IMG/VR virus record: IMGVR_UViG_2690316131_000006
Source: a virus
Taxonomy: Duplodnaviria > Heunggongvirae > Uroviricota > Caudoviricetes
Length of the DNA: 14,375 bases
Strand: one strand, 5' to 3'
Of the stretch, positions 2,650 to 3,287 are shown piece after piece. Position 1 is the stretch's first letter. Every line of letters begins with the position of its first letter. The notes beneath the pieces are model-generated. The model ran no database searches and was not told where the DNA came from. It saw nothing but the letters and a program-made list of their open reading frames with translations. The position numbers and the translations under genes were made by a program.

Positions 2650-2865
2650 ATGTTCAAAGATGATGTTCTGCGCTATTTCAAAAAAAAGCGACTAGTAGCT
2701 GAGGCTCTTGGAATTTCACATGTGGCTGTTGTGCGGTGGAAAGCAGTTATTCCCAAACTTCGCGCAATGGAACTGGATGAAATTACTAACAGTGAATTGA
2801 AATACAACCCAGAACTTTACAAGAAGCAGGATAGCACCTCGAACGAAGGAAAGAATGATTCATGA
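2650..2865 (+). CDS. Cro/YdaS-like small helix-turn-helix regulator, 71 aa
   Basis: Divergent from the repressor; strong Shine-Dalgarno; HTH-like segment LVAEALGISHVAVVRW; stop overlaps the next start (ATGA). Confidence 0.75.
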   Translation: MFKDDVLRYFKKKRLVAEALGISHVAVVRWKAVIPKLRAMELDEITNSELKYNPELYKKQDSTSNEGKNDS

Positions 2866-3287
2866 AAATCAAGCATGAACACATCTGCATGGCGATGAAT
2901 GTCTGGGCGCATCCGGACGGCGAAAAAGTGCCGGCTGCGAAAATTACCAAAGCGTATTTCGAGCTGGGAATGACGTTCCCGGAACTGTATGACGACAGCC
3001 ATCCGGAAGCCCTGGCCCGTAATACCCAGAAAATTTTCCGTTGGCTGGATAAAGACACCCCTGATGCTGTTGAAAAAATGCAGGCTCTGTTACCGGCGAT
3101 CGAAAAGGCGATGCCGCCTTTGCTGGTGGCCCGTATGCGCAGCCACAGTTCTGAATATTACCGTGAGATCGTCGAACGGAGGGATCGGCTGGTGAAGGAT
3201 GTCGATGATTTTGTTGCGTCAGCGGTTGTTTTGTATGACCAGATGAATCGCGGCGGCCCGGCAGGGAATGCTGTGGTGATGCACTAA
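2862..3287 (+). CDS. YdaT-like protein (Rac-prophage YdaT family, CII position), 141 aa
   Basis: Translationally coupled to the cro-like gene; sequence MKIKHEHICMAMNVWAHPDGEK... matches my recollection of the YdaT family (unverified). Confidence 0.65.
   Translation: MKIKHEHICMAMNVWAHPDGEKVPAAKITKAYFELGMTFPELYDDSHPEALARNTQKIFRWLDKDTPDAVEKMQALLPAIEKAMPPLLVARMRSHSSEYYREIVERRDRLVKDVDDFVASAVVLYDQMNRGGPAGNAVVMH

Follow-up and report, generated by a model that had tools for sequence, protein, structure and literature searches.

The stretch of Caudoviricetes DNA catalogued as IMG/VR virus record IMGVR_UViG_2690316131_000006, whose full length of 14,375 nucleotides we call the window, carries at 2650–3287 two small overlapping genes that diverge from a repressor gene, and the nature of this pair and of its control is the subject of our analysis. 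The upstream gene, open reading frame (ORF) A (2650..2865, + strand), encodes a 71-amino-acid (aa) cro-type regulator of the P22_Cro / DicC-like family. The downstream gene, ORF B or ydaT (2862..3287, + strand), encodes a protein of 141 aa that is probably a CII-equivalent transcriptional activator. The ATG of ORF B (2862–2864) and the TGA of ORF A (2863–2865) have the bases ATGA (2862–2865) in common. On the minus strand, divergent from both, lies the gene of a CI-like repressor with HTH_3 and Peptidase_S24 folds (1884..2558, extended to 2600 and 238 aa by PGAP). An original prediction, made from the letters and their ORFs, had described a coupled pair diverging from a repressor, likened it to ydaS–ydaT of the Rac prophage and read it as an addiction-like module; the positions, the ATGA coupling and the divergence all hold in the ORF list, the raw sequence and the Pfam matches.

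Identity of the two overlapping genes

ORF A belongs to the P22 Cro family, scoring 54.9 bits against Pfam P22_Cro PF14549 (cutoff 30.2) and matching P22 Cro (PDB 1rzs) over residues 1–59 at E=7e-11. It falls in PHROG 409, a transcriptional regulator family, and its match to NCBIfam DicC, at 52.8 bits, is sub-threshold. Homologues of this Cro adjoin homologous repressors in phages mEp390 and ZF40. Membership of the YdaS family (PF15943 / COG4197) was considered and rejected: on PF15943 (cutoff 30) ORF A reaches only 15.7 bits, compared with 107.7 bits for K-12 YdaS and 46.5 bits for CP-933P YdaS, and BLASTP gave no alignment between ORF A and K-12 YdaS. The first gene had been called Cro/YdaS-like, and it is the Cro half of that label, as P22_Cro, that stands.

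By its sequence, ORF B is a true YdaT-family protein, as had been proposed. It scores 40.9 bits against Pfam YdaT_toxin PF06254 (cutoff 21), hits PHROG 163 ('CII-like transcriptional activator') with E=6e-47, and shares 31% identity with Rac YdaT of K-12 (E=1e-14). The closest characterised relative is YdaT of CP-933P from E. coli O157:H7 (PDB 8bt1), with 139/140 residues identical (E=8e-92); PDB 3c4r is matched at E=7.6e-79. The sole difference from the YdaT of CP-933P/Sp12 is R9C, at 2886 (codon 9, CGC to TGC), where Sp12, JJ1886 and both PDB entries have Arg. The conserved recognition-helix pair R60-W61 is present, and the near-identity to 8bt1 predicts a POU-like helix-turn-helix (HTH) domain, with Arg60, and a C-terminal tetramerisation helix. 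Relative to JJ1886, Cro differs by one residue and YdaT by two. Phage records label the ydaT homologue 'activator protein cII'.

A YdaT operator at the gene junction

The stop codon of cro and the start of ydaT are spanned by a YdaT operator (OM or 'YdaT-box', ATGATTCATGAAAATCAA, 2855..2872), so that the cognate inverted repeat of a YdaT-family protein lies at the cro/ydaT junction. In CP-933P, footprinting placed the high-affinity YdaT site OM at the ydaS/ydaT junction, on an inverted repeat of the form TTGATT-N6-AATCAA (PMC9986795). In a motif search, 2855–2872 has 1 mismatch to this consensus, its first base being A in the window and T in CP-933P, and the ATGA overlap forms the centre of the 6-bp spacer. 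The 18-mer is identical to the mutationally validated YdaT-box of Rac, and it is present in JJ1886 as well. Wons et al. showed that Rac YdaT binds this box, and that, once the box is mutated, a reverse promoter loses the 29-fold activation that depends on YdaT and racR expression no longer rises (PMC11879457). The core TGATT-N6-AATCA occurs at the cro/ydaT junction of Sp12, Rac, JJ1886, three metagenomic sibling loci (L006–L008) and phage ZF40; in all, the junction box was seen in five independent lineages, ZF40 among them. Because matches to TTGATT-N6-AATCAA at ≤3 mismatches are no commoner than chance (12 against 9.5 expected), only the 1-mismatch junction site is meaningful.

Operators shared by two candidate early promoters

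The region contains three perfect GTAAC-N4-GTTAC palindromes, at 1796–1809, 2559–2572 and 2607–2620, compared with a chance expectation of 0.24 at ≤1 mismatch. The OR1-like operator GTAACTATTGTTAC (2607..2620) lies over the spacer and −10 of a PR-like promoter for cro–ydaT (2594..2623, + strand; TTGACA, 18 nt, (TG)n TACCCT), which a relaxed scan ranked as the best promoter-like site in 1700–3000, with 9/12 matches. The OR3-like operator GTAACCAATGTTAC (2559..2572) abuts the repressor ATG at 2558–2556. The distal operator GTAACAAGAGTTAC (1796–1809) covers the spacer and −10 of a PL-like site from the same scan (1793..1821, − strand; TTGACT, 17 nt, (TG)n TACCTT), which faces a ydfA/B/C–dicF–dicB operon and is near-identical in architecture to the PR-like site.

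These elements are conserved. The two OR-type palindromes are 48 bp apart, a spacing that is identical in ZF40 and in L006–L008, and in an intergenic alignment of the window, a Ser-bearing E. coli sibling, a Salmonella relative and ZF40 both operators are kept in 4/4. The PR −35 hexamer is kept in the E. coli and Salmonella relatives and reads TTTGCA in ZF40. Just 3' of the repressor stop, an intrinsic terminator on the minus strand (stem-loop at about 1857–1881 followed by a U-run; 1842..1886 folded) has a folding energy of −16.5 kcal/mol, with z = −4.4 against shuffles. Divergent genes, repeated operators over PR/PRM and a distal OL/PL are together what the sequence of a lambdoid CI/Cro switch should present. 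Direct control of cro–ydaT by the repressor, which the original prediction had assumed, is therefore well supported at the level of sequence by the three palindromes and their overlap with the PR-like and PL-like sites.

A repressor without its catalytic serine

The repressor scores 61.2 bits against Pfam Peptidase_S24 and aligns over its full length with lambda CI (3bdn), the lambda motif 'VEGNSMT' corresponding to 'VEGDAMT' here. The residue aligned with lambda CI Ser149 is Ala (codon GCG, 2148–2150, − strand), and both the Ala-Gly site ('EQAG') and the Lys-Lys pair ('KK') are kept; of the Ser nucleophile, Lys and Ala-Gly that mark self-cleaving LexA/CI proteins, Ser alone is missing. In LexA and lambda CI, the serine of this motif (Ser149 in lambda CI) is the nucleophile, and replacing it with Ala leaves the protein unable to cleave itself. 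Among 20 aligned homologues, Ser occupies the catalytic position in 15/16 of the other homologues, the exception (P0022) having a degenerate motif. Ala is shared by the window, a 97%-identical cluster of 499 sequences, one 87% sibling and a 68% Salmonella relative; another 87%-identical E. coli sibling carries Ser. The JJ1886 repressor likewise has Ala, and the repressors of the free phages mEp390 and ZF40 keep Ser. The suspicion that this repressor is uncleavable is thus borne out as far as sequence can tell, and through Ser-to-Ala the protein would be expected to be blind to the SOS response.

Several searches define how far this repressor is set apart from known ones. Among 50,697 phage genome records there was no repressor more than 60% identical, nor was there a Cro more than 60% identical in the phage records searched, and a DNA-level phage search with the region gave a match confined to the ydaT region. 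Literature searches on Ser-to-Ala CI proteins or on induction of the JJ1886 ompW prophage returned nothing relevant. Homology to RacR was rejected, as BLASTP gave no significant similarity (best E=0.96). The NCBIfam DicA model (135 positions) matches repressor residues 16–94 only, sub-threshold, and the S24-fold C-terminal domain lies outside the match.

The annotated starts of the repressor gene differ: a mechanical ORF call takes a TTG start (1884..2657), and PGAP adds 14 N-terminal residues (2559–2600) to the protein that begins at 2558. The true start is probably the ATG at 2558–2556, because the extension includes 'GNIGYM', the translation of operator GTAACATTGGTTAC, and holds the only amino-acid differences from the JJ1886 repressor, and because the intergenic alignment shows conservation of a CAT that adjoins the 2559 operator and gives ATG in the repressor's direction. 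The repressor transcript may possibly be leaderless, as was shown for paaR2 of CP-933P (PMC8630535).

Distribution, mosaicism and neighbouring genes

A 2.1-kb core (1800–3900), counted as present when at least 80% covered, occurs in 515/5426 complete E. coli genomes, so the arrangement is not a chance pattern of ORFs. In E. coli genomes PGAP names its products LexA family protein, Cro/CI family regulator, toxin YdaT family protein and HTH protein. In the window the gene order is CI, Cro, YdaT, O-like, DnaC-like and Q antiterminator, and an O-like and a DnaC-like gene also follow this trio of families in the Ser-bearing siblings L006–L008 and in Salmonella (L009 and L011). In JJ1886 the region sits within a complete-looking lambdoid prophage adjoining ompW, which includes int, xis, exo, dicB, the immunity region, O-like, DnaC-like, Q and lysis genes, terminase and capsid.

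The relationship to Sakai Sp12 (= CP-933P) is sharply mosaic. The window is 98.2% identical to Sp12 over 2856–9335, and again over 1622–1789, whereas 1790–2855 is unrelated to Sp12/CP-933P. Since the two are alike outside this interval, a cassette of CI-like repressor, P22-like cro and operators replaces paaR2–paaA2–parE2–ydaS. The junctions fall at 1789/1790 and 2855/2856, the right one being the first base of the YdaT operator, which suggests that recombination exchanging immunity cassettes has its border at the conserved box and the start of ydaT.

Downstream of ydaT lies an O-like replication initiator gene (3310..4272, + strand; Pfam HTH_36), in which an in-frame TAG (3844–3846) stands in place of Gln179; the gene is intact, at 320 aa, in Sp12 and JJ1886. 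A frameshift, the other candidate lesion, was rejected on comparing the translation with that of Sp12. This prophage copy is probably replication-defective. A P-like, DnaC/IstB-like replication ATPase gene follows (4279..5019, + strand; Pfam IstB_IS21, E=1.5e-19).

At the left end, bases 1–102 hold the terminus of an IS1 element, and many plasmids carry IS1 ends that are 100% identical to it. IS1 cuts dicB after codon 15, the N-terminus METLLPNVNTSEGCF being encoded at 148..104 (− strand) before the sequence diverges. The small RNA (sRNA) DicF is intact (323–374, − strand).

Elsewhere, the window carries loci of other kinds. A hok/sok type I locus (Rfam sok, 114 bits at 7164–7338; Hok/Gef ORF at 7276–7488) gives this prophage a genuine module of the addiction type. 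A ParE/RelE-family toxin ORF (11861–12199, PF05016) is followed by an HTH_3 protein (12260–12634), and together they are probably a toxin-first, HigBA-like type II toxin–antitoxin (TA) pair; a DNA methylase gene (10766–11791) lies upstream of it. A TerB-domain protein is encoded at 12942–13373, and beyond its gene are the sRNA STnc100 (13542–13734, + strand; 142 bits) and the anti-GcvB RNA AgvB (13736–13797, − strand; 96 bits), an arrangement that resembles lambdoid prophages of enterohaemorrhagic E. coli.

Comparison with characterised switches

For CP-933P, Jurenas et al. described PaaR2, YdaS and YdaT as analogues of lambda CI, Cro and CII, and found that YdaT activates an otherwise silent leftward promoter, PRE933P, located between ydaS and ydaT (PMC8630535). 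Toxicity of this YdaT was not detected in their tests, and CP-933P, though defective, shows a working bistable switch (PMC8630535). Prolic-Kalinsek et al. solved the structure of YdaT, a POU-like HTH domain with a tetramerising helix (PMC9986795), and the pair was concluded to be Cro/CII analogues and not a TA pair (PMC8630535, PMC9986795). Jobling likewise took ydaS and ydaT to be the counterparts of cro and cII (PMC5917428).

The window agrees with CP-933P/Sp12 in its YdaT (139/140), in the DNA from 2856 through the replication genes to 9335, in the OM at the gene junction and in an upstream gene that overlaps ydaT by ATGA. It differs in that the upstream gene of CP-933P encodes a YdaS-family protein and that of the window a P22-Cro-like Cro, in its operators, and in having an HTH+S24-fold CI where CP-933P has the paaR2–paaA2–parE2 locus, in which PaaR2 is the CI analogue and paaA2–parE2 hold the position of rexA/rexB.

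Rac racR–ydaS–ydaT has the same layout, with a repressor divergent from a Cro-like gene, YdaT and replication genes, and the identical 18-bp YdaT-box over the ydaT start. Its YdaT is only 31% identical to ORF B, however, its YdaS does not align with ORF A and its RacR is unrelated to the window's repressor; moreover, Rac ydaS and ydaT are 23 bp apart, whereas the window genes overlap. The match to Rac that had been proposed therefore survives for the layout and for YdaT, and fails for YdaS and RacR: the link to YdaS is one of functional analogy only, and a link to RacR is absent. Toxicity, too, separates the two types, having been shown for Rac YdaT and not having been seen for the CP-933P type.

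A further comparison is with ZF40 of Pectobacterium, a viable temperate phage that was sequenced from an induced lysogen. Its cI (gp10), cro (gp11) and cII (gp12) belong to the same families as the trio described here: cI has the S24 fold and is 43% identical to the window's repressor, cro is P22_Cro, and 'cII' scores 94.7 bits on PF06254. ZF40 also has two GTAAC-N4-GTTAC operators 48 bp apart and TGATT-N6-AATCA between cro and ydaT; in contrast to the window, its repressor keeps Ser (GESM) and its cro and ydaT do not overlap. ZF40 shows this trio working as a normal temperate-phage switch.

The parallel extends to lambda cI–cro–cII, in which repressor and cro also diverge with common operators, and an establishment activator follows cro and precedes the replication genes. 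Unlike lambda, the window lacks tR1 and an N system in the interval from cro to the CII analogue, it has Ala where lambda CI has the Ser149 nucleophile, and YdaT has no sequence homology to CII, the repeat that YdaT binds being inverted and not direct (PMC9986795). Qin dicA–dicC gives sub-threshold matches to the window repressor's N-terminal domain (DicA) and to Cro (DicC), and, as in Qin dicF–dicB, the PL operon of the window has ydfA/B/C-like genes, DicF and dicB; only in the window is dicB cut by IS1.

A probable Cro/CII-type early operon and its alternatives

We consider it highly probable, at roughly 85%, that the pair encodes a Cro and a CII analogue and belongs to the rightward early operon in the immunity region of a lambdoid prophage. 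In the circuit we propose, the CI-like repressor would bind the 14-bp GTAAC-N4-GTTAC operators over PR (cro–ydaT) and PL (dicF/dicB), keeping both silent in the lysogen. When PR fires, the P22-family Cro would be made and would be expected to act on the same operators, shutting off repressor synthesis. The ydaT gene would be translationally coupled to cro, and YdaT, as a tetrameric POU-like HTH protein, would bind the junction inverted repeat and drive a PRE-like leftward transcript, antisense to cro, into the repressor gene, which would favour the establishment or re-establishment of repression. For a protein one residue different, published work covers the tetramer, binding to TTGATT-N6-AATCAA, activation of PRE933P and the lack of detectable toxicity. 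The window itself supplies the protein identities, the operators, the promoter-like sites, the mosaic junction and the conservation of the trio in a functional phage. Binding of Cro to the GTAAC-N4-GTTAC operators and the position of a PRE core promoter in this cassette are what we infer from these, and activation by YdaT of a leftward promoter feeding the repressor gene is proposed by analogy.

A number of observations weigh against this interpretation. A strict sigma-70 scan of 1650–3400 gave no promoter, so the PR and PL sites are candidates, and their −10 hexamers are weak (3/6); the strict scan also missed the repressor terminator and was replaced by the relaxed promoter scan and an RNA fold. 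When leftward PRE core promoters were sought, a single weak candidate emerged, at 2842–2814, and this core promoter is placed differently relative to the box in CP-933P and in Rac (PMC8630535, PMC11879457). The CI/Cro cassette is known here from its sequence, and with its Ser-to-Ala change the repressor does not conform to the canonical SOS-inducible switch. Rac YdaT, which acts at the same box and has 31% identity, is lethal when induced (PMC11879457). Finally, because this prophage copy is decaying, with IS1 in dicB, an amber codon in the O-like gene and R9C in YdaT, the circuit may have ceased to govern a life cycle.

The same decay could be taken to mean that the module is an inert relic, unexpressed and non-functional in its host and merely carried in a degrading prophage, and a probably uncleavable repressor would fit that description too. 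Neither ORF is broken, however, the three operators and the YdaT-box are likewise intact, and cro and ydaT are near-invariant across genomes in a region found 515 times. Defective CP-933P, moreover, is a precedent for a decayed prophage whose bistable switch still works (PMC8630535). We regard a relic as improbable.

The original prediction favoured a toxin–repressor addiction module, in which a non-cleavable repressor has become essential since derepressed cro–ydaT would inhibit growth, as in Rac. In Rac, RacR is reported to be essential and YdaS and YdaT to be toxic upon derepression or induction (PMC11879457), and as the window's YdaT shares the box of Rac YdaT, the host site rcsA would be reachable in principle. 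The loss of the catalytic Ser is in keeping with such a role, as is a cassette that occurs in 515 genomes yet has no close repressor relative in the phage records. For this orthologue, however, a toxic or addictive role is contradicted by published work (PMC8630535, PMC9986795, PMC5917428). The CP-933P YdaT that differs by one residue showed no toxicity, ORF A is outside the YdaS family, the repressor is unrelated to RacR, and in the functional temperate phage ZF40 this trio operates with a repressor that has Ser. Jobling pointed out that conditional essentiality is common to all prophage repressors and that overproduction makes lambda CII toxic as well (PMC5917428). Were the repressor essential here, blame could fall equally well on the PL-operon and late genes, and the genes inactivated in this copy are dicB and the O-like gene, not cro and ydaT. 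Given a near-identical YdaT that was non-toxic when tested, a module at work in a viable phage, the generic nature of repressor essentiality and the inactivation of dicB and the O-like gene instead, we find the addiction reading unsupported and unlikely; the small probability that it retains reflects the lethality of induced Rac YdaT with the same box and the R9C change in the window's YdaT.

A type II TA pair, with ORF A as an HTH antitoxin upstream of a YdaT 'toxin', is suggested by two small, translationally coupled genes and by database names ('YdaT_toxin' and 'YdaS_toxin' in Pfam, 'toxin YdaT family protein' in PGAP). This possibility is largely refuted and can carry only the slightest weight: YdaT is a tetrameric DNA-binding activator of solved structure, published tests revealed no TA behaviour, the literature consensus is against it, and the window has its genuine TA loci at other positions (hok/sok, and the ParE-family toxin beside an HTH protein).

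Compatible with a Cro/CII-type operon, although rather unlikely in our estimation, is a more far-reaching idea: that the Ser-to-Ala repressor represents a widespread, SOS-blind immunity type in which a lapse of repression, through the intact cro–ydaT pair, could make the repressor conditionally essential or rewire host genes such as rcsA. If this were true, an SOS-blind repressor would lock the prophage in place unless an antirepressor or some other signal acts.

Implications

The module is one of an ordinary, already known kind, and its key protein is essentially a characterised one. The main value of recognizing it as such is a correction, as the labels 'toxin YdaT' and 'YdaS toxin' invite a TA or addiction reading of what is a standard Cro/CII pair; a minor one is the clean mosaic junction lying exactly at the YdaT operator. 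The immunity specificity of the cassette (CI, P22-like Cro and GTAAC-N4-GTTAC) was not found in the literature searched, yet phage ZF40 shares it, and this specificity and the natural Ser-to-Ala repressor are of modest interest only. The repressor's apparent natural loss of its self-cleavage nucleophile may nonetheless bear on how non-SOS-inducible prophages persist.

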